DNA from: Squalus acanthias
Taxonomy: Eukaryota
Direction: 5' to 3'
Length of the DNA stretch: 64,000 nucleotides
Assembly: GCA_030390025.1 (NCBI GenBank)
Contig: CM059432.1
Coordinates: 96,102,001-96,166,000, forward strand
Part shown: positions 3,103 to 53,300 of the stretch, in pieces
Position numbering within the stretch: position 1 is the stretch's first letter
Layout: each line of letters starts with the position of its first letter
Translations under genes and position numbers: made by a program
Notes under the pieces: model-generated
Seen by the model: only the letters and a program-made list of their open reading frames with translations
Databases searched by the model: none
What the model was told of the DNA's origin: nothing

Positions 3103-3508
3103 GGGCTGGATTTTGAATGACCCGTGGAGTCGGGTTTGGAGGCGTGTGGGGGGTTAAATTTGCGAGGTCGGGGGTCCCGACCCCATCCCGACTCCATCCC
3201 GCCTCCACGCAATTTTGACAAAATCAGTCGCTGGGTTCCCGACTCCGTGCCACCTCCAAGAGGCGGGAGAGGCCATTAAAGCCCTTAACAAGCCCTGAAT
3301 TGGTTCTGTAATGCCATTTTGAAACGTTTTAGCTAGTTTAACCCTTTTCCGATGTGAAGTACGCCTGATGTGAAACACGCCAGTGAAACCTGGCGGGAGC
3401 ACAAGTGGATAGCTGACTATCAGCTGCAGGTGCACTATTACAACGGAGATGTGATGAAGGTAGTATTAGGTCTGAAAGTCGCCTCTGATGCTGCGGCATT
3501 GAATATAT

Positions 3509-3546
<38 letters not shown>

Positions 3547-3815
3547 CCAGGTCCACTCACCAGGCAGGTCCTCTCTTACCAATAGCCAGGCAGTCTCTGA
3601 GACCAGACAGTCAGTCTCTGACCTGCAATGATGACATCATCAGAGGCGACTTTCAGACTGAAACCACGAATTAGTTCATGGGTTCCCACATGCTGGAACT
3701 CAATTGCCCAATTAAGTGAAAATTGCATCATTCATCCACATTAATCTGGAGTCGGGGGGGAACACGAAATGCGGATGACACGACCCCAACCCGACCCCAA
3801 GACAAAATCCAGCCC
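3103..3815. mobile_element. Non-autonomous PIF/Harbinger element (MITE)
   Basis: TIRs gggctggatttt / aaaatccagccc; TSD TCA (3100-3102, 3816-3818); CCCGCCTCC subterminal repeats; homologous to 22308-23015; internal (CT)n(AT)n. Confidence 0.85.
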
Positions 3816-12410: not shown

Positions 12411-13380
12411 GGCCGCGATTTTCTCATCAGTGTCGGGATGGGGGCGGGTCAGCTGGTTTCCGGGTTCCAGTCACGCCCCCAGCTTCCTCCGCTCTGCAGA
12501 TGTGATTTTCCCTTGATTACCGGCCAATTAACAGGAAGCGGGTCTGATGACATCATTTGATGATGCATCATCTGCCGGTTTCCTTAAAGGGACCATGCAC
12601 AATTTTATTTTGACAGTTGATTTTTCAGTGTTTGACAGCATTGAGGTGCTGAAAACACTGACAATCACTGCACAAAGGTGAACTTTTGCACCCAGGCTCT
12701 CCGATGACTCCCTCCATATGCTTATCCAGTGCAGCATCAAGTGATGGCGGCGAAGATTGGTGATGAGGTTGGTGATTTTGGTGTTGGGGTGATTGTGGAA
12801 GGATTCGGAGGTCTGATTGTTTCATTGGCTCCGATGTTGCTGGAATAGATGGCAGCTGCAGGTGAGATGACAGAAGCGATCTGTCACTGGTGAGAGAGGT
12901 TCTCCCAATGAGGTGGCACTGGACATACAGTTGGATTTAAAAACTTGTAAGCTAAAAAAATCTGTATATGTATTAAAAATGCAGTAACCAACATTTTCTT
13001 TGCTCTGAAACTCACCATGTGCAACATTGCATCCTTGACACCACTTCTGCAGCTGTCATCTTTTCACAAACATCAGACCTGACTCACAACACGCCACACT
13101 TACCATGTTGTCCGGACATTGTAAAACCCAACCCAGACGCTGGAAAATCGAAAAAGACCCTGAAAATTGCTCACAAGTACCTGTTAATAGGCAGTTAATT
13201 GCCTTTAATCCATTTCCCGCCACTAGGTGTCGGGTCCATTTGCAAATCGGGGACCTGACACTTGGGAAGGTTGTGTGGAGGTGGGTTGACGGCAGGTGCG
13301 GAACCAGCCGTTAATCAAAATGACTTTAACCTCTGACCCGCCTCCAAACCCGCCCTCTGAGCGCCGGCAAAATCGCGGCC
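12411..13380. mobile_element. Non-autonomous Harbinger element with Myb-promoter remnant
   Basis: Perfect TIRs ggccgcgatttt / aaaatcgcggcc; flanks AAA/ATA; CCAAT and TGACATCA followed by an APRLSDDSL-like Myb remnant. Confidence 0.75.
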
Positions 13381-22300: not shown

Positions 22301-23890
22301 ACACAAAGGGCTCGATTTTGCCAGGCCCGAGGAGGCGGGAATGGAGGCATGTGGGGTGTTAAAATTGCAAAAAATGGCGGGCGGACCCGACCCCGCCTCC
22401 AAGCAATTTTCCCAAATGCGTGGTTTCTGAACCCCTCTCCGTCCCGCCTCCAAGAGGCAGGATAGGCCCTTAACAACCACTTAATTGCCTCTATAATCCC
22501 ATTTTGAGAGGCCTTTCTGATTTTAACACTTTTCCGACGTGATGCACGCCTCCTCTGAAACACGACGGTGAAACCTGGCGGTAGCACACTTGGATTGCTG
22601 ACTATCAGCTGCAGGTCCACCATTAAGAAGGAGATTTGATCAATCATCATTCTGGGGGAACTTTTAGCAGTCATAACCATTGTTGTGGAACTTTGGAGTG
22701 GTGGTGGTGCTACAAAAAAAATCTGGGAGCAGACTTAGGTCTCCTGCTGCTCATTTTGCCTCCAGGTCCCTCTCACAGCAAAGACCAAAAGCTTCCCAAT
22801 CTTTGCAGACCTTAAATGCAGCAGCAATGATGACATCATCAGAGGCGACTTTCAGACTGAAAACACTAATTGGGTCATGGGTTCCCACATGCTGGAACTC
22901 AATTGCCCAATTAGGGGAAAATCGAATAATTCTCCCACATCCAATTGGAGTTGGGTGGCTAACACGAAAAGCGGATGACACGACCCTAGCCCACCCCAAT
23001 GACAAAATCAAGCCCCAAGAGTCTGCAAAGGGATATAGATAGGTTAAGTGTGTGGGTAAAAAATTGGCAGATGGAGTATAATGTGAGAAAATGTGAGGTT
23101 ATCCACTTTGGTAGGAAGAATAAAAAAGCAAATTATTATTTAAATGGAGAGAGACTACAAAATGCTGCAGTATAGAGGGATTTGGGGGTCCACGTACATG
23201 AAACACAAAAAGTTGACATGCAGGTACAGCAAGTAATTAGGAAGACAAATGGAATGTTGGCCTTTATTGCAAGGGGGATGGAGTATAAAAGTAGGGAAGT
23301 CTTGCTACAACAGTACCGGGCGCTGGTGAGACCACATCTGGAGTACTGCGTACAGTTTTGGTCTCCTTATTTAAGGAGGGATATATTTGCATTGGAGGCA
23401 GTTCAGAGAAGGTTCACTAGGTTGATTCCTGAGATGAAGGGGTTGTCTTATGAGGAAAGGTTGAACAGGTTGGGCCTATACTCATTGGAGTTTAGAAGAA
23501 TGAGAGGGGATCTTATTGAAACATATAAGATTCTGAGGGGGCTTGACAGGGTAGATACTGAGAGGATGTTTCCCCTCGTGGGGGAATCTAGAACTAGGGG
23601 GCATAGTTTCAGAATAAGGGGTCGCCCATTTAAAATGGAGATGAGGAGGAATTTCTTCTCTCAGAGGGTCGTGAATCTTTGGAATTCTCTACCACAGAGA
23701 GCTGTGGAGGCTGAGTCATTGAATATATTCAAGGCCGAGATAGACAGATTTTTGAGCTGCAGGGTTATGGGGAGCAGGCGGGAGAGTAGAGTTGAGGCCA
23801 AGATCAGATCAGCCATGATCTCATTGAATGGTGGAGCAGGCCCGAGGGGCCAAATGGCCTACTCCTGCTCCTATATCTTATGTTCTTATG
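19335..23890 (+). mobile_element. 5'-truncated CR1 LINE (ORF1 remnant + frameshifted ORF2), interrupted by a MITE
   Basis: ORF fragments with HRPPNS, GDFN, SDH, QHGF, QGSVLGP, FADD, LEYCVQFWSP; 3' UTR to ~23890. Confidence 0.92.
22308..23015. mobile_element. Harbinger MITE
   Basis: TIRs gggctcgatttt / aaaatcaagccc; flanks AAA/CAA inside CR1 RT; near-identical to 37087-37899 and 48892-49613. Confidence 0.88.
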
Positions 23891-28863: not shown

Positions 28864-30044
28864 CCACATCAAAAGACATAGCAAGATACAACTGAGACAA
28901 TGAGGTGAAGTCGCAGGGGTTCTAACGTGTCAAAAGCTGCCGTCTGTATGTAAAACGAAAAGCTTTAAAAAAAAAAAAAAAAAATTACTTTTTTACTGGG
29001 AAAATTTTTACTTTTTTACTGGGAATCACATCTGTGAACAAGCTAACGACGACTCGAGTCCGGATCACGTCATGTATCGTGACATAAACCCAAGATCCCG
29101 ATTGAGACCGTCTTCATGAGTGCAGAACTTGGCTATCAGTTTCTGCTCGATGATTTTGCGTTGTCGTGTGTTTCTAAGGTTGCCTTGGAGAACGCTTACC
29201 CGCAGATCCGAGGCTGAATGTCCTTGACTGCTGAAGTGTTCCCCGACTGGGAGGTAACAATCCTGCCTGGCGATTGTTGCGCGGTGCTCGTTCATACGTT
29301 GTCTCAGTGTCTGCATGGTCTCGCCGATGTACCATGCCGCGGTGCATTCTTTCCTGCAACGTATGAGGTAGACAACGTTGGCCGAGTCACATGAGTATGT
29401 ACCATGTACCTGGTGGGTAGTGTCCTCACGTGTGATGGTGGTATCTGTGTTCATCAACACAGATACCACCATCACACGTGAGGACACTACCCACCAGGTA
29501 CATGGTACATACTCATGTGACTCGGCCAACGTTGTCTACCTCATACGTTGCAGGAAAGAATGCACCGCGGCATGGTACATCGGCGAGACCATGCAGACAC
29601 TGAGACAACGTATGAACGAGCACCGCGCAACAATCGCCAGGCAGGATTGTTACCTCCCAGTCGGGGAACACTTCAGCAGTCAAGGACATTCAGCCTCGGA
29701 TCTGCGGGTAAGCGTTCTCCAAGGCAACCTTAGAAACACACGACAACGCAAAATCATCGAGCAGAAACTGATAGCCAAGTTCTGCACTCATGAAGACGGT
29801 CTCAATCGGGATCTTGGGTTTATGTCACGATACATGACGTGATCCGGACTCGAGTCGTCGTTAGCTTGTTCACAGATGTGATTCCCAGTAAAAAAGTAAA
29901 AATTTTCCCAGTAAAAAAGTAAATTTTTTTTTTTTTTTTTTAAAGCTTTTCGTTTTACATACAGACGGCAGCTTTTGACACGTTAGAACCCCTGCGACTT
30001 CACCTCATTGTCTCAGTTGTATCTTGCTATGTCTTTTGATGTGG
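28864..30044. repeat. Near-perfect ~1.18 kb palindrome
   Basis: ~588-bp arms around a CATC spacer (29452-29455); only a 1-nt indel beside the A/T run noticed; mirror ORFs in the track. Confidence 0.97.
29435..29842 (+). CDS. Potential stand-alone GIY-YIG endonuclease ORF, 135 aa (mirror copy at 29065-29472, minus strand)
   Basis: In-frame ATG at 29435 supplied by the antisense arm; open to stop; expression unknown. Confidence 0.4.
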   Translation: MVVSVFINTDTTITREDTTHQVHGTYSCDSANVVYLIRCRKECTAAWYIGETMQTLRQRMNEHRATIARQDCYLPVGEHFSSQGHSASDLRVSVLQGNLRNTRQRKIIEQKLIAKFCTHEDGLNRDLGFMSRYMT

Positions 30045-31592: not shown

Positions 31593-32096
31593 GACTGGGA
31601 GCAATTGGCATACTCAGAGTCCTTCCAGTAGCAGACAACACCTTCCCAACGTCCAGCAGCACTCCCTGCACACTTTAACAACTTTTGAAATGTCTTCCAG
31701 CAACTCAGTATTCATACAAACTTTGCAAGTGCCAGTACAAAATCAATAAATCAACTTACCTGCAATTTCGATATATCCCTTTAAATAGTGCTAGTGGGGC
31801 GAGGGGGGTGGGGGTGCGGGTCTGTCGTGCAGCTGCATGCACATGCAGCTGTGCGTGTTTAGGAGATGGTGTTGAATGGAGCGGCGGCTTCAAAAATGGC
31901 AGGTTGTGCTGACGTCACAATCTGCCTATTCTGCATACTGCCGGTGTACGCACGTACCACCCGTGCTATCACCCTCACCAAGATGCCGAACAGCACGGGC
32001 CATGCTGGAAGTGGGCGGAAGCGAGGCGGACAACATTTTTTTTTTTTTTAAACGGCCATAACTACCGGCGCTAAGGTGTCGAATTTCGCGGACATA

Positions 32097-32880
32097 GGGG
32101 GCGATTTTCCCAGCCCCGAGGAGGCGGGTTTGGAGGTGGGATGCACTCATCCTGGCCAGATTTGCATAGATTGACCATTGTGGCACATGTGCTTGGCTCC
32201 TTCTTAACACATGATAGACAATGGACATGACTCTCTGGCCTCCTTTCACTCTGACCACCAACCTGACCATGCAAGTGTCGTGGAGCCCGCAATGTGGAGC
32301 TGCCTAAGCCAAAATAATAGATGCCATCACGCCAACAGTTTGCCATCACCTCATTTTAATAGATTCCCACAGGGATGGCATTTCATCAATAAACAGAAAC
32401 ATTCACCCAATCTGCACACAGACCTGGAGGTTATATCCCTTGCCAGCTGGACCCACACAGCCTTGGTTTCTTTGGGAGGCCTCTTCCTCCCAGATGAGGG
32501 GAAGAGCACCTCCCTGCTAGCTCTCACCCCTTCAACCAGCATACCCAGCGCCTCATCCGAGAACCTCGGGAAGGCCCTTGCCTTGGAGCTGGCCATTTTT
32601 CAAGGAGATAACAGCTTGGAGGTGGTGCAGCATTGACCAAAAACCAGTGGAATGAGCCAAGGCAGCAAGCAGCCCTTAAATGAAGCTGGATAAGTGACGT
32701 CAGCAGAGGCGAATTTCAGTCCCAAAACACTAATTGGCCCAGGGGAAGCCACAACTCTGAAATCAACTGGCCAATTAGGGGAAAATCGCAAATTTTTCCC
32801 ACTTCTCAGTGGAGGCGGGTTTGGAACCCACCCAAACCGAAACCCCCCTCCAACCCGCCTCCATTGGGAAAATCGCGCCC
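32097..32880 (-). mobile_element. Non-autonomous Harbinger with Myb-domain ORF (32351-32596)
   Basis: TIRs gggggcgatttt / aaaatcgcgccc; TSD ATA; ORF MASSKARAFPRFSDEALGMLVEGV...W. Confidence 0.85.
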
Positions 32881-33834: not shown

Positions 33835-35435
33835 AATCTCTGGAGTTTAGAAGAATGAGAGGTGATCTCATTGAAACATATAAGATTCTGAAGGGGATTG
33901 ACAGGGTAGATGCTGAGAGGCTGTTTCCCCTGGCTGGAGAGTCTAGAACTAGGGGACATAGTCTCAGGATAAGGGGTCGGCCATTTAAGACTGAGATGCA
34001 GGGAGGATGTTTCCCCTGGCTGGGAGGTCTAGAATGAGGGGTCACAGTCTCAGGATACGGGGTAGGACATTTAGGACTGAGATGAGGAGAAATTTATTTA
34101 CTCAGAGGGTGGTGAACCTGTGGAATTCTCTACCACAGAAGGCTGTGGAGGCCAAGTCACTGAATATATTTAAGAAGGAAATAGATAGATTTCTAGACAT
34201 GAAAGGCATCAAGGGGTATGGGGAGAGAGCAGGAATATGGTATTGAGATAGAGGATCAGCCATGATCTCATTAAATGGCGGAGCAGGCTCGAAGGGCCGA
34301 ATGGCCTACTCCTGCTCCTATTTTTCTATGTTTCTATGAGGAGAAATTTCTTCACTCAGAGAGTTGTGAATCTTTGGGCTGGATTTTGAATCTGGGGTCG
34401 GGTTGGGGTCGGGAATCACACATTCTGGCTTGTGAACCCGCCTCCATCGAGATGTGGCCAACCCACTGTATTTTCCCTTGATTGACCTTGTTCAGCCCGT
34501 CCAGTGGGCTCAGCAGGCCAATTAAGGGCCACCCGGCAACAGGTGACGTCACAGATTGACATTTCATCTGTCAAGAGCTTTTGACAGATAAAATATCAGT
34601 GTTTGACAGCTCTGTGAAGCTGTCAAACACTGACAATATGAATTCTAACTTCAGTCCTTCCTTTCAGGCTGAGTTAGAAATCATTCCACCACAGAAAACA
34701 GAAGGCTGCAGTTTTTGACAGAACCACGGCTTTCCTGCTTTCTGTGCCGGTGAGATTTCTAACTCCCGAGAACTGAAGGGCTGACACCTGCAGGAGGAAG
34801 TTAAGGTAAGTAAAACTTTTTCCCACACTTAGCACTTACCTTACACACTTACCTCTGCACACATGCACCCATCACTCACCTGCCCACCGGACATATCGAC
34901 CCCTCCAACCCCTGCAGACCCACGGTCCGCCCCGATTACTTGGAGTGGTTGCCACCTGTCGGGAAGCCCACACTTTTCTTTTTGAAATAGGGATTATGCA
35001 AAAACCTGCCTGTTAACTACCTGTTAACAGGCAGTTAATTGTCACTAATCCCTTCCCGCCTCGGGGAATCGGGTCTCAGCACAGGTCAGGGTACCCGCCG
35101 CCAGAGAAACTGGCATGGAGGCGGGTTGGAGGCGGGATGGGGTCGGGACCCCCGAATCTGCAACTTTAACCCCCCCCCGCCTCCAAACCCGACTCCACGG
35201 GTCATTGAAAATCCAGCCCTTTGGAATTCTCTACCCCAGAGGGTTGTGGATGCTGAGTCGTTCAATATATTCAAGGCTGAGATTGATAGATTTTTGGATA
35301 TTAAGGGAATCAAGGGATATGGGGATCAGGCGAGAAGGTGGAGTTGAGGTCGAAGATCAGCCATAATCTTATTGAATAGCGAAGCAGGCTCGAGGGTCCG
35401 TATGGCCTACTCCTGCTCCTATTTCTTATGTTGTT
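33835..35435 (+). mobile_element. CR1 3' fragment interrupted by a second CR1 3' fragment (34001-34337) and a MITE
   Basis: RGDLIETYKIL...FKTEM|RRNFF...; two CR1 tails. Confidence 0.85.
34376..35219 (+). mobile_element. Harbinger MITE with hairpin array
   Basis: Perfect TIRs gggctggatttt / aaaatccagccc; TSD TTT. Confidence 0.88.
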
Positions 35436-35774: not shown

Positions 35775-36493
35775 GGAAGGGTAGATTACTTAAGAGGCAC
35801 CCTGGCCTCGCTCTGCCTTGAAGCTTTTATCTTTCCCATGGTACGGAAAAACCTTTGCTCCTGGAGGACCAGCAGCTGTGCGCGGGAGAGGCTGCGCGCA
35901 CGCAGCGAACTTCAGGTTTTTTTTCAGGTTTCTCCGGGAAGGTAAGTATGGAGAAGCTGCACATTTAAAAAGGAGGCGCAAGGCCTGTTTTTAACAAGGT
36001 AAGTGGTTCATTAATTACAATTTAAACATTTTTTCAACAGGTTTATCTTTTTTAGATACTTTAAAGAAAGGTAAGTTTATTTTTAGCACCGTTAAAAAGT
36101 ATAATTGATTTTTTCAAAAATTTAAATTTTTGTTTAAGGTAGTTAATTTATGTAACTTATAGTTATTTTAAAAATGTGATGTGTTTTAAAACATTTATTT
36201 GAAGTTTAATTGTGGTTTTAGGGCCGATCTCTATTCATAGATTTGACAGGTCTTCCTGTCAAATCTATGAATGAAAATGCCCTGCTAGGATTGGCTCTCC
36301 ATGGCCCACGTGATCCATGGGGTCGCTTCAAACTAACTGCGCCCCTGGGATACACAAGCACTGCGCGCCAGCAGCTGGAGGAGGCCCAGGACCCGAAGTC
36401 CTCGTGGGCCCAAAGCACAACTGCAGGCGTGGTAGGCAAGTACGCGCGCGATGCTTGCACCCGCAGGAAGCCGGAAAGCCGAATTTCTGGCCC
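35775..36493. mobile_element. Probable non-autonomous Harbinger-like element
   Basis: Right end gaatttctggccc resembles the TIR at 51604-51616; left end uncertain; CpG-rich ends. Confidence 0.5.
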
Positions 36494-36509
36494 AATACTG
36501 TGTCAGAGG

Positions 36510-38610
36510 CTTCACCCAGCCCATCTTGCCTGTATCAGCTCTTTGAAAAAGCTATCCAATTAGTCCCACTCCCCTACTCTTTCCCCATAGCCCTGCTAAC
36601 TTTTCCCCCTACAAGTATTTATCCAATTCCCTTTTGAAAGTTACTATTGAATCTGCTTCCATCATCCTTTCAGGCATTTCATTCCAGATCTTAGCAACAC
36701 ACTGCGAAAAAAATATTCTCCTAATCTCATCACTGGTACTTTTGCCAATTACCTTAAATCTGTGTCCTCTGGTTACTGACCCTTCTGCCACCTGAAACTG
36801 TTTCTCCTTATTTACTCTATCCAAACCCTTCATGGTTTTGAACAACTCTATTAAATCTCGCCTTAACCTTCTCTGCTCTAAGGAAAATAACCCCAGTTTC
36901 TCTAGTCTCTCTACGTAACTGAAGTCCCGCATCCCTGCTACCATTCTAGTAAATCTCTTCTGCACCCTCTCTAAGGGCTTGCATCCTTCCTAAAGTGTGG
37001 TGCCAGAATGGAACACAATACACCAGCTGGGGCTTAACCAGTGATTTATAAAGGTTTAGCATAACTATCTTGCTTTTGTACTCTATGGGCTCGATTTTGC
37101 CAGGCCCGAGGAGGCGGGAATGGAGGCGTGTGGGGTGTTAAAATTGCAAAAAATGGCAGGCGGGCCCGACCCCGCCTCCATCCCGCCTCAAGCAATTTTC
37201 CCAAATGCATGGTTTCTGATCCCGTCTCCGTCCCGCCTCCAAGAGGCGGATAGGCCATTAAGGCCCTTAACAACCACTTAATTGCCTCTATAATCCCATT
37301 TTGAGAGGCCTTTCTGATTTTAACACTTTTCCGACATGATGCACGCCTCCTCTGAAACACAACGGTGAAACCTGGTGGTAGCACACTTGGATTGCTGACT
37401 ATCAGCTGCAGGTCCACCATTAAGAAGGAGATTTGATCAATCATCATTCTGGGGGAACTTTTAGCAGGCATAACCATTGTTGTGGAACTTTAGAGCCTGG
37501 AGGAGGTGTGGTGGTGGTGGTGGTGGTGGTGGTGGTGGTGGGGTGGTGAGGGTGGTGGTGGTGGTGGTGGTGGTGAGGGTGGTGGTGGTGGTGATACAAA
37601 AAAAATCTGGGAGCAGACTTAGGTCTCCTGCTGCTCATTTTGTCTCCAGGTCCCTCTCACAGCAAAGGCCAAAAGCTTCCCAATCTTTGCAGACCTTAAA
37701 TGCAGCAGCAATGATGACATCATCAGAGGCGACTTTCAGACTGAAAAAACTAATTGGGTCATGGGTTCCCACATGCTGGAACTCAATTGCCCAATTAGGG
37801 GAAAATCGAATAATTCTCCCACATCCAATTGGAGTCGGGTGGCTAACATGAAAAGCGGATGACACGACCCCAGCCCACCCCAATGACAAAATCAAGCCCT
37901 ATGCCTCTAATTATAAAGCTGAGGATCCCATATGCTTTTTTAACAGCTTTATCAACTTGTCCTGCCACCTTCAAAGATTTGTGTACATACACCCCCAGGT
38001 CTCTCTTTTCCTGAACCCCCTTTAAAATTGTATCATTTAGTTTATATTTCCTCTCTTCATTCTTCCTACCAAAATTAATCACTTCAAACTTCTCTGCATT
38101 AAATTGTATCTGCCATGTGTCTGCCCATTTCACATCTATGCTGCCGCTTCCCCTATAATCCCATGGGCTTCAATTCTGCTAACAAGTCTATTATGTGGTA
38201 CTTTATCAAATGCCTTTTGAAAGTCAACCGCACTACCTTCATTAACCATCTTCATTACTTTATCAAAAAACTCGATCAAATTTGCCAAACACGATTTGCC
38301 TTTAACAAATCCAGGCTGACTGTCATTTATTAAGCCATATTTTTGAAGTGTGATTACTGTTTCAAAAAATGTTCCTACGTCCCGGAGAATGGCCTGTAGT
38401 TGCCGGGTTTATCCCTATCCCTTTTTTAACAGGGGTCCAACATTTGCAATCCTCCAGTCCTCTGGCAACACTTCTATATCTAAGGAGGATTGGACAATTG
38501 TGACCAGACACTTTGCTATTTCCACCTTTACTTCCCTCAGCAACCTAGGATGCACCCCATCCGTACTGGGTGACTTTTCGACTTTGAGCACTGCCAACCT
38601 TTTAAGCACC
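36510..38610 (-). mobile_element. Degenerate CR1 ORF2 3' part
   Basis: ERLEKLGLFSLEQRRLR, WADTWQIQFNAEK, DWRIANVGPLLKKG. Confidence 0.88.
37087..37899. mobile_element. Harbinger MITE with expanded (GGT)n
   Basis: TIRs gggctcgatttt / aaaatcaagccc; TSD TAT; triplet repeat 37506-37593. Confidence 0.9.
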
Positions 38611-41280: not shown

Positions 41281-42030
41281 GGGCTGGATTTTGTCAATGG
41301 GGACGTGATGGAGGCGGGACTCCCACTTTTTGGGTTGTAGTCCCGCCTCCATCGACTTGTGGCCAACCCACTGTATTTTCCCTTGATTGACCTTGTTAAG
41401 CCCGCCCAGCGGGCTTAGCAGGCCAATCAAGGGTCCCTTGGATACAGGTGACGTCAGCCATTGAAATTTCATCTGTCAAGAGCTTTTGACAGATGAAATT
41501 TCAACGTTTGACAGCTCTGTGAAGCTGTCAAACACTGACAATATGATTTCTAACGTGAGTCCCTGTACTTAGACTCAGTTAGAAATCAATCCAGCACAGA
41601 AAGCAGAGACTGCAGCTTTTGACAGCTCCGCGGCCATTCTGCTTTCTGTGCCGTGGATGTGAGGGACTCCCGACACCTTAAGGAAGCTAGCCTGCAGGAC
41701 AAAGTTAAGGTAAGTAAAAGTTCTTAAAACACTTTACACACACCAAACACACTTACCTCTGCACTCATGCACCCATCACTCACCTGCACACCGGACATCT
41801 CGACCCCTCCAAGCCCTCCAGACCGACGGTCCGCCTCGCTAAATCGCCGTGGTTCAGACCTGTCGGGAAGCCCACACTTCAGGGCTAAAAATAGGGATTA
41901 GGCAAAAAACTGCCTGTTAACTACCTGTTGACAGGCAGTTTATTGGCACTAATCCCCTTCCCGCCTCGGGGAGGCGGGTCCCAGCACAGGTCGGGTAACC
42001 GCCTCCTGGGAAACTGGCATGGAGGGGGTT
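41281..42030 (+). mobile_element. Harbinger MITE related to 34376-35219, right end missing
   Basis: Left TIR gggctggatttt; colinear interior; follows a short L2 fragment (~41130-41280). Confidence 0.8.
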
Positions 42031-43853
42031 GAAATTTGGAGCAGAACCCAGATCTGTTTGGTTTCTGCCCCATTTGTTAATATGGAAATTCCAATTTAGG
42101 TGTCTGGGCACTTCTAATACCTACACCACTCCATATCCTAGCAATAGTTTGTGGGCGAGTCAGGGGATGTTCCTGGGCTACCCTGGGAATTTTGCCCAGC
42201 TCATCCCTGTTTGGCCCAGCATTTCACAGAAGGATTTATCTTTTCAAAGCTGCTCCTCAGTTCCCTGTGACCAATGATGATTCTTTAAATCTTTTAATCT
42301 TGAGTCCAATAAGAGCCTTGAACTCCCCTCTTGGAGCAGTAGTGAAATGGCAGAATGCCCTGGGATTTGGCACAGAGTTATAGAGAGATCAGATCAACAG
42401 GAAACATTCCTACCTTGCCACACATCTGCCCTCTTGCCAGTGTAATTGGTTCAAAAGAGTTACTAAAATTTGTAAAGACCTCAACCGTGGTGACTCTGAA
42501 ATGGCAGTCGATAACAAAAATGAAAATTTCTCAAAAAACCTTTCAGCACAACCAGGTTCTTCCATTAAAGGCTTGTATTGACCCCAACATTACAACATTA
42601 TCTAAAATAATAGATTATAAGAATCCATAAGATTACCTCAGCATTAGACATTTGTAATACTTGAATCCCCCAATTAGACTACAACCTTTCAAAACACACT
42701 AATCTGTAAAATACTTAGTGGGGAAAGATTTCCTTTGTGCCAACATGCAATAAGATCGTTAAATCATACTTTACAAAATGGGGTAGTGATTTTTTTACAC
42801 ATAGATTACAGAGGAAATCTCACCCCAATATATTTTTATTGTGAGATAACATTTTAGATTGTTGCATCAAGATACTTAGCTGCTGAATATGAAATGTATT
42901 CCACAGCTGAGTTATATAATGGGTCCATCATATGTAAAAAAAATACATATTCAACAGAAAACTGATGCATATTCTTGCTTCCACTAGGCATAAAATATTT
43001 TGCTAAAAGCACAGAGAGCACTTTAATATTTAGGCCACTGGTATTTTCTATATGCATGCCCTGCCAGCTGAAGCTGTAAAATCATAATGTAGCTAAATCA
43101 GCCAGAATTCAATGGTACTTCTTGATGCTGTAATAAATCTTACTTTATGTTAATATTTTAAAGGTTTTGATTGCACTTTGTGTATAAATATACTCATTAT
43201 TCTTGATTTCCAACTATAAATTGTATACTAATATTATTTAGTGCTAAGGTTTGGCATGGTTAGAATACTTATATTTGTATTGCTGTTTTGACACAGGTGC
43301 AACACAACTTGCACTGATAATCAGAAATGAATGGAGCTCCAATTACAAAAAAAATGGTTTTATGTGGAAAACTGTCTTTTCTAGCATCAGCTGTTTGGAA
43401 GAAAATATGGCAGCAGCTTTGATTCCGCCCGCTTCTGGTGGGTCCCACAGCGGCTGCCATTTTGGGCAGGTCGGCAGCGTTGCTGTTGCCTGCACTCGCT
43501 GCAGAAATGGAAATTAGGCAGATTGTGACATCAATGAGTATGCATCGCTGATTTGACGCACCATCTGCCATTTTGGATATCGCCGCTCCACTTAATGCCT
43601 TCTCCAAATCACGACCAGCTAAACATGTGTTCAGCAGCAGGAAGGACCCCCCAACAGCGGTATTTAAAGGGATCATCAACAACTTGCAGCTGACTTTTTT
43701 TTAATTTCTACTGGCTCTGTGTAAGTTTGTGCAAATTGTTTGGAACTTTCTACAGTTATTTAAAGTTGCTGAGGTGACAGGGAATAGTGCTACAAGTGGA
43801 GAATGCCTTGCTTCTCATTTAAAGGCTTCTGCTCACTCCACTTGCTCCCAGTC

Positions 43854-45123: not shown

Positions 45124-47002
45124 CTAATCACACTTGTGCATTCCCTTAGTATCTGTCTTTCGTGTTCCTTTTCCTACTCCAGTGCACCTATGAAGTGCTC
45201 CGCCAGTGGCTGCAGCACAGCTGGTGGAAGGCTGCTGACTTTCAGTGGGGGCACTGCAGATGGCCTTGCAGGATGAATCGCGCAGTTCTGGGCCTAGAAG
45301 GCTCAGCTGTAGACTGCACCACCTCGGCATAGGCGGCAGCAGTCTGGACTGGTTGGATGACTGGCAGCAGCAAGGGCAATGGCGGAGTTGCAGTGGTGGG
45401 AGTAGGAATGCTGTCATCCTGAGAGAGGACAGCAGGTTCTTGCCCCACAGACCCACTGCCACTCCCCCGGGGCAGCACCTCAGCATTCCTAGCCATCTGT
45501 TGGGGATAGATTGCTGGAGTGCTGAGACACCCTGCAGGCCCCTTTTCACACTCGTAAACCCAGCCATGATGGCAGCATTCTGAGCTTCCACTGCAGCAGT
45601 GAGACGTTGGGTCACTTCTGCCTGTGCTGCAATGGAAGCTGCGACATCATCCATTACACGCGGCATCATGTCTTGGTCCACAAGGTCTCTCATGGAGTTG
45701 CCCATCATTTCCATCCTGGAAATCATGGGCTCCAAGCTCTGCGCAAAGTCCTGTGCAATGTTGGAGCCGGACTCCTCCATGCTCCTTGACACTGGCAAGA
45801 GGCTCTCTGGCAGGCTTGCCATTGCACCAAGCATTTCTGTGCGCATGCCCACCACCCTTCTTCTGAAGGCCTGTCCATCGAAGTCATCATCTGAGTCCTG
45901 TGCAGCAGAACTTACGCGCAAACTCATCTTCTAGGGAGATGGCACCTGAGCTGCCCTTTCCCCCTGGCCTGGCTGCAGCCCACTTGTGCCCGGTACCTCA
46001 CCCTGTGCAGATCCCGCTTTTATACTACCCTCTAAGGTCCGTGCAGTGCCATTTTCTGAGCTGGTGCCTGCGAGTGTCAGATTGAGTGATGGTGTGTCTT
46101 CTTCTCCTTCACTCTCCTCCTCCATCACTTCGGGGACTGTGCTGGTGGGACTTCTTGGGTATCTGAAAGGAGAAAGGCACAAGGGTGGGTTGTTGTGAGG
46201 AGAGGGGGGAAAGCAAGATATCCATGCATACACTATCAGAAGTTTGTAAGTGAGAAGAGATTGTGGGATGAGGGGGAAGTGGGTTGCGAGAAGAAGGATT
46301 AGGTATGGCCATACCGTCATCATCAGCAATGCTGTCAACTTCCCCGCTCGCCACGGACTCTATGTTTGCCCCTCCAATGATCTCCAGCACTGCTTCCTCC
46401 AGCTCTGTCAGGGTCTGCAGATGGGCTTCCGCTCCACCCGTCTGCTGCTGCTCCCGGCAGTTATGAGTGACCTTTGCCTGTAAGAGAAAGGGAAATGGGT
46501 CAGTGAGTGTGGTGCAATGTGTTTGGGAGATGTGCCTGCCATGGTTGAATAGCTGGCAGTGTGTGCATGGTGTGAGATGTGGGTGTGAGTCTTGCAACAG
46601 TGGTAAGTGTGTGAGGGTGATGTGAAGCTATGATTGTGAGGTATGAGTGGTGATTGCTAGATATTGTTGTTAGGTGAGTGATGGGAGTGTGGTGCATTGA
46701 GCAGAGTGTGAGGCTTAGTGGTGCAGATGGTGGAATATGACAATTGAAGATGCATTCACTCACCTTGACCACTCGTGTGAGGTCATTAAGCTTTTTGCTG
46801 CAGTGGATCCAGGTCCTGGGGACAACACTCGTCGCACTGACAGCTTCAGCGATCTCCTCCCACAGCCTTCTACTGTTCTGCCTGAAGGCCTCTTACTCCC
46901 CTGCGGGTAGAGGGCCTGACGGCGTCTTTGAACCCCCAGGACCAAGGCCTCCAGTGCCACATCCAAAAATCTCCTCACCCTTTCTCTTGGCTGTTGGGCC
47001 AT
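45124..47002 (-). pseudogene. Harbinger Myb/SANT-like gene, copy B (exons ~47002-46764, 46477-46315, 46162-45124)
   Basis: MAQQPRERVRRFLDVALEALV...KKLNDLTRVVK; canonical GT-AG introns; stops and frameshifts. Confidence 0.82.
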
Positions 47003-48825
47003 GGCTTTCTCCACAATGACAATGAGTTGCTGCTGCACCAAATCACCTCCCCTTTAAGTAGTGCAGAGAGCCGAGGCCAAATTTTATTGGCCAGTAGACT
47101 GCACCCAATATTGGCCCCCCTGTTCAGCGTTAAGCCAATCAGTAGCGTGTTTACTGCTGAGATCAGCCCTGCAATCATTATAATGAGCAGGCAGCATGAA
47201 TTTTGCGTGCTGCCTGCACCACTTTGAATGGGCATGGGCACATAATGCCTTGTGCTGCCCGCGCCCATTTTCAGGCCTTATCCAATTTCTAGGCTGGTAT
47301 CTATAAAAAAAACTGGAAAATAATTAAATCAAACTTGTTTATGGATTTACATTTTCTCACTGTTATGCTATTATTTATAAGACATTTCAGAATGATTCAT
47401 TAATTTCCCATGTACGTGCACTATTTTACTGCAATGTTTAGACTTTTGAAGATTCGTAAATGCTTTAATATTGGGTGTTCGGACAAGGTATTGAGTAACA
47501 ATATCTGTATAATCTATTGACCTCCTATTCCTCATCTACATGTTGCCCCTCGGTGACATCATCTGAAAACACATCAGATTCCACATGTATGCTGACGTGA
47601 CCCAGCTCTACTTCATCGCCACCTCTCTCGACCCTTCCATTGCCTTTCTATTGTCAGACTGCTTGTCCGACATCCAGTCCTGAATGAACCAACATTTTCT
47701 CCATTTAAACATTGGGAAGACTGAAACCATTGTCCTCAGCCCCTACAATAACTCTTGAAGGATTCTGGGCTTTTGATATGGACTTTGGTGACTGCTCTTA
47801 AGAAGAATTAAGTAAGGCCTGTGGAGTGGAACCATCAAGGTGAAACTTGCCCGGGAACCGTGAGAAGGACAAAGGAGCATGAAACCTTGAGATAAAAGGG
47901 TGCTACCTCGGTTAAAGCACAGGCAGCCAAGGAGGCATAGCTTATGTGCAGCCAGTGCAATCGGAACAAAATTACTGATAGCCTAACTCTGGATCAACGG
48001 CCGACCAACAAACAGATCGGTTGCAGTGAAATGCCAGTCCCACGAGGGCTTCTGGGCCGTAATTGTCAGCTTGATCAAAGTTAGAGATGATGCTGAACTT
48101 GTGTTACTGCTCAAGCTGCAGTGAGGAAAGTAAGTGCGGCAATACTAACTGACTTGCTGAATTCTTCAAGGAAAAAACTTGTTCAAACTTACTTGTGTTT
48201 GCAAAAGGAGATAAACGAAGAGATAAGCCAGGATGCTGGTAATTAGAAGCAGAGAAAAACAAGTCCATATTTGGCTCTTATTCCCAGCAACAGACTCAAG
48301 GACACAGAGAGAAAGATAAAGGTATAAAACACCCAGGGCTAGAAATTCATCTACTTACCGCCACTGCGTAGCGCCATGAAATGGTGTAATAATAGCGGCC
48401 GGCACTCTATCACCAGCTGGTGGCAGGTCCCACAGCGGCCGCCATTTTCCTCCCTTCTGTTGCGCTGCCGGTAACTGTCAGCACCCTGGAAAAAATATGG
48501 TGGCGTGGTGATGTCAATCGGCGTGCATCGCCGACTTAACGTCACCACTCCGAACTCTGACCCTAGCGCTGAATTCAGCACTGGGTCCTAAGCACGCCAG
48601 GTAATCCTGCCATGCAAGCAGGCTGACAGTGGCGATGTCAACACCTCTTAAAGGGACACACACATCTTTCAGGTAAGTTTGGATTTAAGCTTTTGGACTG
48701 GGTTTTTTAGATTTTATTGAAGTAGTGGCTTGCTGTAATAGATGTTAAAACATTTTTTAAGTGTGTAGGGAGTGCTGCTGGATGCTTGCAAGGCCTCAGA
48801 TGATAAAGGAAGGCCTCTGAGAAGA

Positions 48826-49695
48826 TAGAAAATGCCGCAAATACTCAGCAGGTCAGGCAACATCCGTGGAGAGAGAAACAGAGTTCACGTGGGGCTCGAT
48901 TTTGTCATTGGGGTGGGCTGGGGTCGTGTCATCCACTTTTCGTGTTAGCCACCCAACTCCAATTGGATGTGGGAGATTGATGCGATTTTCCCCTAAATGG
49001 GCAATTGAGTTCCAGCATGTGGGAACCCATGACCCAATTAGTTTTTTCAGTCTGAAAGTCGCCTCTGATGATGTCATCATTGCTGCTGCATTTAAGATCT
49101 GCAAAGACTGCCAACTGTTTGGCTTTTGCTGTGAGAGGGACCTGGAGGCAAAATGAGCAGCAGGAGACCTAACTCTGCTCCCAGATTTTTTTTACCACCA
49201 CCACGCTCCAGACTTCCACAACAATGGTTATGACTGCTAAAAGTTCCCCCAGAATGATTGATCAAATCTCCTTTTTAATGGTGGAGCTGCAGCTGATAGT
49301 CAGCAATCCAAGTGTGCTACCGCCAGGTTTCACCGTCGTGTTTCAGAGGAGGCGTGCATCACGTCACAAAAGTGTTAACATCAGAAAGGTGTCTCAAAAT
49401 GGGATTATAGAGGCTGTTAAGTGGTTGTTAAGGGCCTTAAGGGCCTATCCCGCCTCCAAGAGGCGGGACGGAGACGGGATCAGAAACCACGCATTTGGGA
49501 AAATTGCTCAGAGGCGGGATGGAGGCGGGGTCGGGTCGCCCGCCATTTTTTGCAAATTTTAACACCCCACACAACTCTATTCCCGCCTCCTCGGGCCTGG
49601 CAAAATCGAGCCCCACATCTCAGGTCAAGATGCTGCCTAACCAGCTGAGTATTTCCAGCATTTTATGCTGTCATTTCAGATTTACAGCATCCGCT
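48826..49695. mobile_element. Short Penelope-like fold-back fragment containing a MITE
   Basis: Inverted arms of the same repeat as 11893-13605. Confidence 0.7.
48892..49613. mobile_element. Harbinger MITE (inverted relative to 22308-23015)
   Basis: TIRs gggctcgatttt / aaaatcgagccc. Confidence 0.88.
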
Positions 49696-50356: not shown

Positions 50357-53300
50357 ATCTTTGCCTATCCTAGTGATGTCATGCAGTGCTACCCCAGTGG
50401 CTGCAACATGGCTGGTGGAAGGCTGGTGACTTTCAGTGGGGGACACTGCAAATGGCCTTGCTGGTCGGCCTTGAGGAGCTGGTGGCTGGGAGTGTGACAT
50501 CGTGTGACGGTGTTTCTTCTTCTTCTTCTTCATCTTCATGCTCCTCTCCCTTTTCTTGGTCACCCACTGTCTGGGCAGGCTGCATTTTTTGGGTGTGTCA
50601 AATGAGGAAGGCACAAGGGTGGAGTTGTGGTGATGGGAGGGCAGAAAGCAAGAGATGCATGCCAGAAGGATGATAACTTATGAGGATACCAGCATCTTTT
50701 ATCCTTTCAGCCCCACCGCTGGCCAAGGGCTCAGCCATGCCCCTGCCAAGAATGGCCTGCACCGTCTTCTTCAAGGGAGTGAGGTGAGGCTATGAATGGG
50801 AGATGTGCCTCATGATTGTTGCAAATTGTTGGTAGGTGAGTGATTGGGGGTGGGGGTCATGCATTGAGCAGTGTGTGAGGCTAGTGGTACAGTTGGTAGG
50901 AGACGGCTTTTGAAGATGCATTCACTGCCCTTGACCAGTGGTCTGAGGTCATGAAGATTGTTTGGGCACTGGAGCCAGGTGGTGGGGGCAACACTGCTGG
51001 CAGTGACAGCCTCGGTGATGTAGTCCCACATCATTCTTCCTGGAGGGCCTCTTGACCCCTGTGGGTAGACGACCTGTCTCGCAGTGTTGACCCCCTGCAA
51101 AAAGCTGGAGTGCTGCGTGCGAGACCCTGGGTGTCCCTTCCATGGCTTGCTGAGCTATTTGTGTTAGTGCTGAAGCAGTTTTCCCATTTTTTGAGGTTAA
51201 AAGGGAATTCAGCTTTAAGAGCTGAATATTCACATTTGAGACTTCTTTTTAATGTTAATTTTTTTTTGAAAGGTAGAAAGGGCTGAAAACTGCATTTTTT
51301 TCACTGCATTTTAATTTCTATTAGTTCTGATTGCATTGCTCCTTTAATTCATGGCCCTTTTAATTGCCCACAATTCCTTGCGAGCTCCGCAGCCTCACTC
51401 CCAGAGGCTGTGCGAAGCTCGAACACCACTTCAGGACAGGGACTTTGCCTCGCAGGTCTCCATTGACGCCACCAGGAGGTCGTTGCATGGAAGGTTGGCG
51501 CTGCGGCACCAATTTCCAGCCCCCCAAGAAGAATTTATTCTCCTTAGCGTTGTGGCTGTTAACTCCAGTTCCCGGTGACATCCGCAACTTTTGTGGCGAA
51601 CACGAATTTCTAGGCCCCAGACTTACAGCGATCAAGAGGAGAAATACTAGCAACATTCAAAGGAAGATGTGGAAAGGAGCCTCCTCAATTGTTCCAGGAC
51701 AAAAAATTTGATCACCCTTGGTTGTGAGTTGTGCTTCCCAGTGTAAGGTTGTATTAATCTTTATCTGTTAAAACTGTCTATTTTGAACATCAATTAAATT
51801 ATTAAAATTATAAAGTCTTGGATGATTCTGTCATTTCATGTCTGGAAAAGAAAAGCCTACACTCCGTTCACTAGCCACCAATTCTATCCTCCTTCCTGGC
51901 CACTATTTCAATCTGCACCGAACTGTTCACAAACTTGCTGTTGTTTTTGACCCTGAGCTCAGCTTCCAACCCCATATCCTCTCCGTCACCAAGATCTCTT
52001 ACTTCCATCTGTGTAACATCGCCCGTCTCCCTCCCTGCCTCAGCCCATCTTCTGCTGAAACCCTCATCCATGCTTTTTTACTTCCAGATTTCCTCCTGGC
52101 TGGCCTCCTAACTTCCACCCTCATCTTAACTTAAGCTAATTAAAAATTCTGCGGTCCGTATCCTAACTTGCACCAAGTCCTGGTCACCCATTATCCCTGT
52201 GCTTGCTGACCTACATTGGCTCCCAGTTCATCACCATCTCGATTTTAAAATTCTCATCCTTGTTTTCAAATCTCTCCATGGCCTCACCCCTTTCTATCTC
52301 TGTAACCTCCTCCAGCCCTACAACCCTTTCGTGAACTCTGTGTTCCTCCAACTCTGGCCTCTTGTACATCCTCCACTTCCTGTGTCTCACCATGCCTTCA
52401 GCCGTCTAGGCCCTAAACCTCTCCGTCTTTGTTCTAATATCTCCTTCTTTGGCTCGGTATCAGTGTTTGAAAAACTATGCTACTGTGAATCGCCATGGTG
52501 CAGTTTACTACGTTAAAGGCAGTATATAAAGGCAAGTTGCTGTTGTTGTTACTGGTTGCAAAATCTGTCAAAATATAGTAAATGTTTATAATTTTAAAAG
52601 CCATGGTTTGACTATATTGTTTATTCTTGTTGCCAAGAGATGCTCCTAAAATGAACGATAGTGCCTTGGAGTATCAACATGTAACACTATGGAATGGAAG
52701 ATCAAGGGTTCAAGCCCTATCTCTGCTAAGTTCACATTTTAGGCTCTACTGCTATGGGGAGACTTGGTGCCTCCTTATAGAGATCAAGGAATATCAGAGG
52801 TGTCTTCACCAAACAACTCTTGTGCTCATTATGATACTCAGCAAAGAGCAGCTTTTGCAGTGGTCTGAAAAGCTATGACAGAAGCAAAGGATCTATAAAG
52901 GGAGCAAAAAAAAGGGGAAAGAAAAATGTACACTCAAACTGAAAGGTAACATACTCTCAAAAAAACACCTCGCTGCTTGCATATCACTGATCCACTCTCT
53001 CCTGCCAATCTTCCTCCTGATCTTGCTTCTCCATTCCAATTTTCTGGCCTGAAAAGACTGTAGTTTCCCTGCTCTCTATTACAGCAAGGGAGTTAGGATC
53101 AGGGAGTAATAGGGCAATTTCATCATTCATGGCCTGGTGACGCTGATCTGTTGTCTGTAGTTACAATTGTGAGGGACAGGAGAGCAGATCAGTAGAGTCA
53201 GAGCAATAAGATTTAGAGGGATGATTTGTAGCAGTACTAAATACACACATATACACAGTCTAAAGGTGCTTTCCATCTCTCTTCCAATAACATTTCATGG

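Follow-up and report, generated by a model that had tools for sequence, protein, structure and literature searches.

Our analysis places the segment at 34500-34815 inside an 844-bp mobile element (copy 1) that, by structural tests, is a non-autonomous member of the PHIS (Harbinger) superfamily, and the segment itself is most likely derived from the front of a Harbinger Myb-like gene. The ends of the element and its target duplication are observed directly, as are the homology of its left interior to the Myb promoter and 5' UTR and that of its post-donor part to Myb intron 1. We consider it probable that copy 1 belongs to an abundant PHIS family formed by deletion, in which the front of the Myb gene and the parent's far end were retained and fold-back hairpins were gained; it would be mobilised in trans and carry internal blocks that act at the DNA level or have been homogenised between subfamilies. 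The original prediction had proposed a mobile structured-RNA or first-exon cassette, or an array of paired protein-binding sites. No test supports a working structured RNA, with no Rfam match at threshold, no significant covariation and no strand preference in the stems. The first-exon proposal holds as history, in that the segment represents the Myb promoter, the 5' UTR, the donor of exon 1 and the beginning of intron 1.

Under the account we favour, a two-gene parent would have given rise, by internal deletion, to a non-autonomous Harbinger (PHIS) element that lost the Myb coding part of exon 1. Hairpin 2 would have been inherited from the parental 5' UTR; for hairpins 1, 3 and 4 the source would be template switching as DNA was synthesised, which would have created them in master copies and perfected them time and again. 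Myb-like and transposase proteins would move the element in trans by cut and paste, and the conserved internal blocks would be kept as DNA-level transposition aids or by subfamily exchange rather than through a mature structured RNA. The rival readings weighed below are not fully exclusive of this explanation. Coordinates are given in Table 1 and refer to the window, the whole stretch of 64,000 nucleotides that was analysed.

Table 1. Positions of the elements and of the parts of copy 1 in the window.
Feature	Position	Strand	Remarks
Sister element with hairpin-2 homologue (12608-12665), then Myb exon relic from 12664	12411..13380	+	
Sister element with CCAAT, CRE, TTTAAGGG and Myb/SANT frame 32596-32351	32097..32880	-	PF13873, E 3.8e-4
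Non-autonomous Harbinger-type element, copy 1	34376..35219	+	844 bp; TIR scan and TTT on both flanks
Left TIR GGGCTGGATTTT	34376..34387	+	Target duplication TTT 34373-34375
Promoter-like block: ATTTTCCCTTGATTG, CCAAT 34518-34522, CRE 34544-34551	34469..34551	+	Common to Myb-exon-bearing sister elements
Hairpin 1	34556..34599	.	5' arm is an inverted copy of the 3' arm; at the sisters' TTAA(A)GGG site
Hairpin 2	34596..34633	.	16 bp perfect; homologue before the Myb start in 12411-13380
Hairpin 3, without TGACAG	34641..34681	.	Two-sided change between copies, 34652/34671 C-G to G-C
Hairpin 4	34689..34747	.	Extendable in copy 1 to 34671-34765 via reverse complement of 34671-34682
Putative 92-nt mini-intron signal set	34788..34879	-	CAG|GTGAGT, branch-like TACTTAC/CTTAAC, pyrimidine tract, GCAG|G; read from sequence
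Splice-donor consensus AAG|GTAAGT	34803..34811	+	Spacing to intron motif as in Myb exon-1 donor
Intron motif CCCATCACTCACCT	34868..34881	+	Myb intron 1 motif; probable deletion junction with right end
Right-hand internal palindrome	35004..35036	.	4/50 differences between copies; partly in sister element
Right TIR	35208..35219	-	Target duplication TTT 35220-35222
Copy 2, second subfamily, right end missing	41281..42031	+	625/756 identical to copy 1

Ends, insertion site and relatives of the element

The earlier identification of a Harbinger MITE is borne out by terminal inverted repeats (TIRs), a 3-bp duplication and Myb and DDE relatives in the window; the motifs do lie within 34500-34815, an interval that covers only the interior of the element. 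The TIR scan gives 12 perfect base pairs, extending to 37 nt at 70%. Copy 1 sits in the 3' part of a LINE, which we take to be CR1-like, and two uninterrupted copies of this LINE in the window (two of the four matches listed) provide empty-site analogues with a single TTT. Neither reading all six frames by eye nor a Pfam search of one frame found a Myb- or transposase-like frame in copy 1. Descent from an element with Myb/SANT and DDE genes is supported by Myb relics in sister elements with the same ends, by the intron motif in three Myb genes and by a DDE_Tnp_4 relic. Among PHIS elements, PIF/Harbinger in the strict sense has TWA targets, NuwaI CWG and NuwaII C|TNA|G, according to the available part of PMC4482050. 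The TTT duplication of copy 1, the single complete copy, matches none of these, and sister elements are flanked by TCA, TAT and ATA.

The diverged copy described at 41420-41716, with its parts in the same order, is found within copy 2. Contigs of four runs span all 30 bins of the element in three organisms; some are all but identical with copy 1, others have diverged about as far as copy 2 has, and both kinds occur in more than one organism, so copies 1 and 2 probably represent two subfamilies. The family is abundant, with 9178 contigs from 55% of one DNA run (a contig count, not a copy number), and 20 of the 24 sequencing runs listed, across 11 studies, contain part of the element. A search of open papers found no description of the family or of its hairpin cassette; a Repbase or Dfam entry may exist. 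An exact 26-mer of the element had zero matches in metagenome, viral and genome contigs, and an exact 20-mer had zero in metagenome contigs. A possible kinship to the ancient Eulor/UCON repeats was set aside, the available portion of PMC5753468 containing nothing supportive.

The window also holds six more elements with related TIRs, together with decayed autonomous Harbingers that match DDE_Tnp_4 (E 1.6e-20) and Myb_DNA-bind_5 (E 9.2e-5); the direct two-gene parent of the element was not found in it. The Myb/SANT frame of the sister element at 32097-32880 comprises 81 residues and scores 20.8 bits, just under the curated cut-off of 21.7. Four stretches, at 3103-3815, 22308-23015, 37087-37899 and 48892-49613, belong to a related family of MITEs whose TIRs are similar; these elements contain an internal inverted repeat, and their centres are variable and microsatellite-like. 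In another small element, at 35795-36495, the AGGTAAGT motif occurs three times, and TTTGACAG/CTGTCAAA form the basis of a hairpin at 36233-36272 whose relation to hairpin 2 is not significant. At 28967-29940 a GIY-YIG (Penelope-like) fragment is duplicated in inverted orientation, 485 bp nearly perfectly matched around a 4-nt loop, with A and T runs at the ends; this is either a fold-back insertion or an assembly artefact.

Segments shared with Harbinger Myb-like genes

The CCAAT at 34518-34522 and TGACGTCA at 34544-34551 are present as originally read, and AAG|GTAAGT is confirmed with its GT at 34806. The promoter-like block matches the sister element at 32097-32880 better than any of 200 shuffles. 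Past the donor, the first introns of three Myb genes align with copy 1 (4, 0 and 0 of 3000 shuffles as good) and more weakly with copy 2 (7, 131 and 325 of 3000), whose best match in one of these introns lies at a different place; these Myb-intron and left-end alignments come from a 180-way screen, in which the position of a match outweighs its nominal value. The 14-mer CCCATCACTCACCT, allowing up to two substitutions on both strands of the 64 kb, occurs five times, in the two copies and in three Myb introns 1. Beyond CCCATCACTCACCT the element matches the right end of a sister element (z 22 and 16), which suggests that CCCATCACTCACCT marks the probable junction of the deletion.

At 12411-13380 the sister element has the same left-end layout as that at 32097-32880, and behind it a homologue of the hairpin-1 3' arm and hairpin 2 (47/59 identical; z 11.2 and 9.1) that stops 2-3 nt before the position of the Myb start codon, and on this basis hairpin 2 appears to be a 5'-UTR hairpin of the parent gene. 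The relic frame of this element aligns in register with the Myb protein of 32097-32880, counted from the start-codon position, residue 10 to residue 10 (E 2e-4; 0 of 2000 shuffles), and with a second Myb protein (5 of 2000); there is no alignment with a third (1296 of 2000), and the relic has zero Pfam matches of its own. Where the sisters have a TTAA(A)GGG box, copy 1 has the 5' arm of hairpin 1 instead, between the CRE and hairpin 2. Hairpins 3 and 4 gave zero significant alignments with Myb targets, and an origin as decayed Myb coding sequence was set aside; the protein alignment of copies 1 and 2 to Myb used one frame, other than that of the start-codon position. In the 5' region of another Myb relic, at 51160-51200 (minus strand), a short CTTAAAG hairpin resembles the top of hairpin 2 and may be due to chance.

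A transposase-gene origin of the plus-strand cassette was weighed in view of a CRE-like motif and CAG|GTAAGT at transposase 5' ends in the window; we dropped it, as the blocks held in common are those of the Myb side. In the transposase 5' regions of two autonomous relics, at 31754-31785 (minus strand) and 48650-48680, TTAAAGGG stands about 20-28 nt before CAG|GTAAGT; as a TATA box, it would leave almost no space for a first exon.

The region around the plus-strand donor of the element, read on the minus strand, resembles a small intron. Beyond the signals listed in Table 1 there are further minus-strand donors at 34847 and 34834, the putative branch region corresponds to the plus-strand donor read in reverse complement, and the donor could form duplexes with antisense motifs in the element at -12.7 and -12.0 kcal/mol. 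These features could be read as a self-contained splice cassette, in which the donor doubles as the minus-strand branch region, pairs with antisense motifs 25-45 nt downstream and softens insertions into host introns. Both copies have the full minus-strand signal set, CCTGCAGG and the branch region are unchanged within a spacer that is about 40% diverged, and donor/antisense duplexes are predicted in one Myb intron as well as in the element. However, Myb intron 1 is where the antisense motif comes from, the pairing is weak in two other, decayed Myb copies (-6.3 and -10.8), only two of the three minus-strand donors are present in copy 2, and the reverse complement of any donor resembles a branch point; we regard such a cassette as improbable. 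Intron 1 of a Myb-like gene at 46672-46765 (minus strand) contains a 10-nt complement of its own donor (duplex -17.6 kcal/mol), and the motif is also found in two decayed Myb copies.

Hairpins, TGACAG sites and uneven divergence

The four stem-loops are real as predicted folds: the 316 nt of copy 1 fold at -123.9 kcal/mol (z -7.9) and their counterpart in copy 2 at -139.8 (z -10.7), and 0 of 100 shuffles reach either value. The stem of hairpin 2 is perfect, as first described, with a length of 16 rather than 15 bp. Hairpins 1 and 2 are indeed built on TTGACAG/CTGTCAA, but hairpin 3 is not, and hairpin 4 has TTGACAG without a CTGTCAA partner. Watson-Crick pairs number 16/19 in copy 1 and 19/19 in copy 2 for hairpin 1, 13/15 and 15/15 for hairpin 3, and 12/15 and 14/15 for hairpin 4. 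Within the 316-nt fold of copy 1, a longer stem (34671-34701/34735-34765) displaces hairpin 3. Over the whole elements there are six perfect 9-bp stems in copy 1 and eight in copy 2, compared with at most two in 200 base-shuffles of each.

The block that follows hairpin 4 repeats different neighbours in inverted form: copy 1 has 34671-34682 reverse-complemented there, and copy 2 the 5' arm of hairpin 3. Template switching yields reverse-complement blocks, perfect stems and compensatory changes, as described in the available part of PMC8794818. Two-sided changes alone are therefore no proof of RNA function. Hairpins 1, 3 and 4 have the look of fold-back products, given this replaced block and stems that are mostly Watson-Crick and show no plus-strand G.U preference. 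Near the right end, a G+C-rich subterminal hairpin at 35115-35198 gives the best matches to Rfam miRNA models, still below threshold.

An active version of the RNA proposal would make the CCAAT/CRE block a promoter from which the element expresses a first exon or a structured RNA, spliced from AAG|GTAAGT into host exons or processed to small RNAs, under selection in master lineages. The strong folds of both copies, the conservation of the donor and hairpins 1-2 between subfamilies, and the descent of the parts from a real transcription unit are all consistent with this, as are two-sided changes, seen at 2 of the 82 predicted pairs when the copies are compared and, for hairpin 2 set against 12411-13380, at 1 pair in 16. 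The latter count, from two to three sequences, is equalled or exceeded in 156 of 500 shuffles, so covariation does not rise above shuffles. Across 65 pairs in two copies, read on the plus strand, 119 of 130 cells are Watson-Crick, 2 are G.U, 6 are A.C and 3 are other; on these small numbers the plus-strand G.U preference expected of this reading is absent. In both copies folding favours the minus strand over the plus strand (-101.1 vs -86.6 for copy 1, -111.1 vs -103.7 for copy 2). The element has no counterpart of the TTAA(A)GGG box seen in the sister promoters, and 34600C breaks an outer hairpin-2 pair unless its partner has changed, a change that does not appear among the variant rows listed. 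We consider this reading unlikely.

Searches for known RNAs bear on the same proposal. Rfam, including miRNA precursors, returned zero matches at gathering score. The weak matches (35 and 27) all fall far below threshold, the best in the hairpin region reaching 31.4 bits against 70, and those to miRNA models and to EBV sisRNA-1 (12.5 and 14 bits against 58) were dismissed as generic hairpin or composition matches. With a covariance model built from three sequences, the matches in the window are its own sources and their reverse strands, followed by 36214-36280 at E 0.6. Four runs were examined for junctions: X13 and X14, guessed to be RNA, and two others, X5 and X17. One X13 contig (34773-34871) crosses the donor unspliced, contigs having neither level nor strand and giving no evidence for or against expression. 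The 13 contig joints listed for these runs all lie away from both candidate introns, and of the 24 loose contig ends listed not one is at 34805, in data where contigs cannot show absence. The X13/X5 depth ratio runs without a step over 34550-34810 (median 5.7 vs 5.8 elsewhere), which likewise is no evidence for or against expression.

Alternatively, the hairpins could be by-products of inverted TGACAG sites bound by TALE factors or by the element's own Myb-like protein. TGACAG, which we take to be the TALE homeodomain motif (MEIS/PKNOX/TGIF), occurs five times in 34568-34721 and 76 times in the window against 42 expected; inverted pairs recur at 12868-12886 and 36243-36262, and contig joints reveal sister subfamilies in which other arrangements of TGACAG lead into the same 3' arm of hairpin 2. 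Yet copies 1 and 2 supply only 11 of the 76, which makes the excess a general property of this DNA. Pairing extends well past the hexamer, copy 2 has lost both outer TGACA cores of hairpin 1 with the pairing kept, and hairpin 3 has no site. The motif behind the proposed TALE/MEIS array is thus present, while the array itself is weakened, pairing having outlasted the core, and we think this origin of the hairpins very unlikely. The GGAGGCGGG-type repeats near both ends would be the likelier Myb sites.

Divergence between the copies is uneven. They differ at 131 of 753 sites, with a dispersion over 25-nt bins reached in 6 of 10000 permutations, and neutral inheritance alone is therefore an insufficient explanation. 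With block limits set by eye, differences are few in hairpins 1-2 (5/85), the donor (0/15), the intron motif (3/55) and the right palindrome (4/50), and more frequent in neighbouring spacers (21/53 and 11/30) and hairpins 3-4 (23/107). Stems differ less than non-stems (13/126 vs 15/66, p 0.03), a comparison in which the definition of stems is circular. The conserved blocks could reflect selection on master elements or exchange between subfamilies. Contig depth peaks at hairpin 2 and the right palindrome in four of four runs, and clearly at the intron motif in three of four.

Variant bases, taken from 40 of 153 variant rows in four runs, suggest that copy 1 is decaying, since majority bases mend three of its stem mismatches: 34590G, the majority in all four runs at more than 99% of depth, restores a hairpin-1 pair, and others mend 34642 (59-74%) and 34689 (55-100%). 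The copy-2 base 34600C, which breaks an outer pair of hairpin 2, is common in all four runs (30-100%). Selection on the conserved motifs is possible, and template switching, being able to preserve RNA stems that function as well, is compatible with function. We judge it quite unlikely that master lineages keep a cut-down Myb transcription unit under selection, made up of the hairpin from the 5' UTR, the donor and a mini-intron that spans both strands and masks itself, whose RNA tunes helper Myb mRNA in trans or hides splice sites from host pre-mRNAs. If true, this would be an RNA-level strategy among elements thought to live by DNA signals alone.

Relation to known elements and implications

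The rice element mPing keeps the promoter of Ping ORF1. Like copy 1, this Tourist-like MITE of the PIF/Harbinger group is a non-coding derivative of a parent with a Myb-like ORF1 and a transposase, and has TIRs and a 3-bp duplication (available parts of PMC9921582 and PMC2836001); its mobility is tuned by internal sequences, as reported in the same portion of PMC9921582. The element differs from mPing in length (844 vs 430 bp), in its duplication (TTT vs TTA), and in its four internal hairpins, retained donor and intron motif. Zebrafish Harbinger3_DR/Harbinger3N_DR and NuwaI resemble it as vertebrate PHIS elements with a Myb/SANT partner, TIRs that start with GGG and a 3-bp duplication (PMC2836001, PMC4482050, in the sections available). 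NuwaI, however, duplicates CWG where the element duplicates TTT (available part of PMC4482050), and the accessible text of PMC2836001 and PMC4482050 makes no mention of an internal hairpin cassette for Harbinger3_DR or NuwaI.

Two further systems offer partial parallels. MITE transcripts can act as hairpin precursors that fold and yield small RNAs, and MITEs can also bring splice sites; such precursors fold through their TIRs, whereas the element has short internal stems of 15-19 bp (excerpts of PMC12595863). Hairpins formed by template switching share with ours perfect stems, two-sided changes and replacement by a nearby reverse complement, but in the available text of PMC8794818 they are described for RNA genes, while the present case concerns a DNA transposon and would follow from two copies.

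What at first looked like a new RNA cassette becomes a history of the parts that a vertebrate Harbinger MITE kept from its Myb gene. Fold-back copying can build a convincing multi-hairpin 'RNA', complete with two-sided changes, which calls for caution in covariation screens of repeats. A teleost-centred survey reported finding no Harbinger in elephant shark and urged that other cartilaginous fish be checked (PMC9179366, as far as its available part goes); the window is rich in Harbinger elements and bears on this gap if the genome is a shark's. If the conserved blocks are functional, the family would spread promoter, hairpin and splice signals across several related genomes, and would be a test case for the internal determinants of MITE success.
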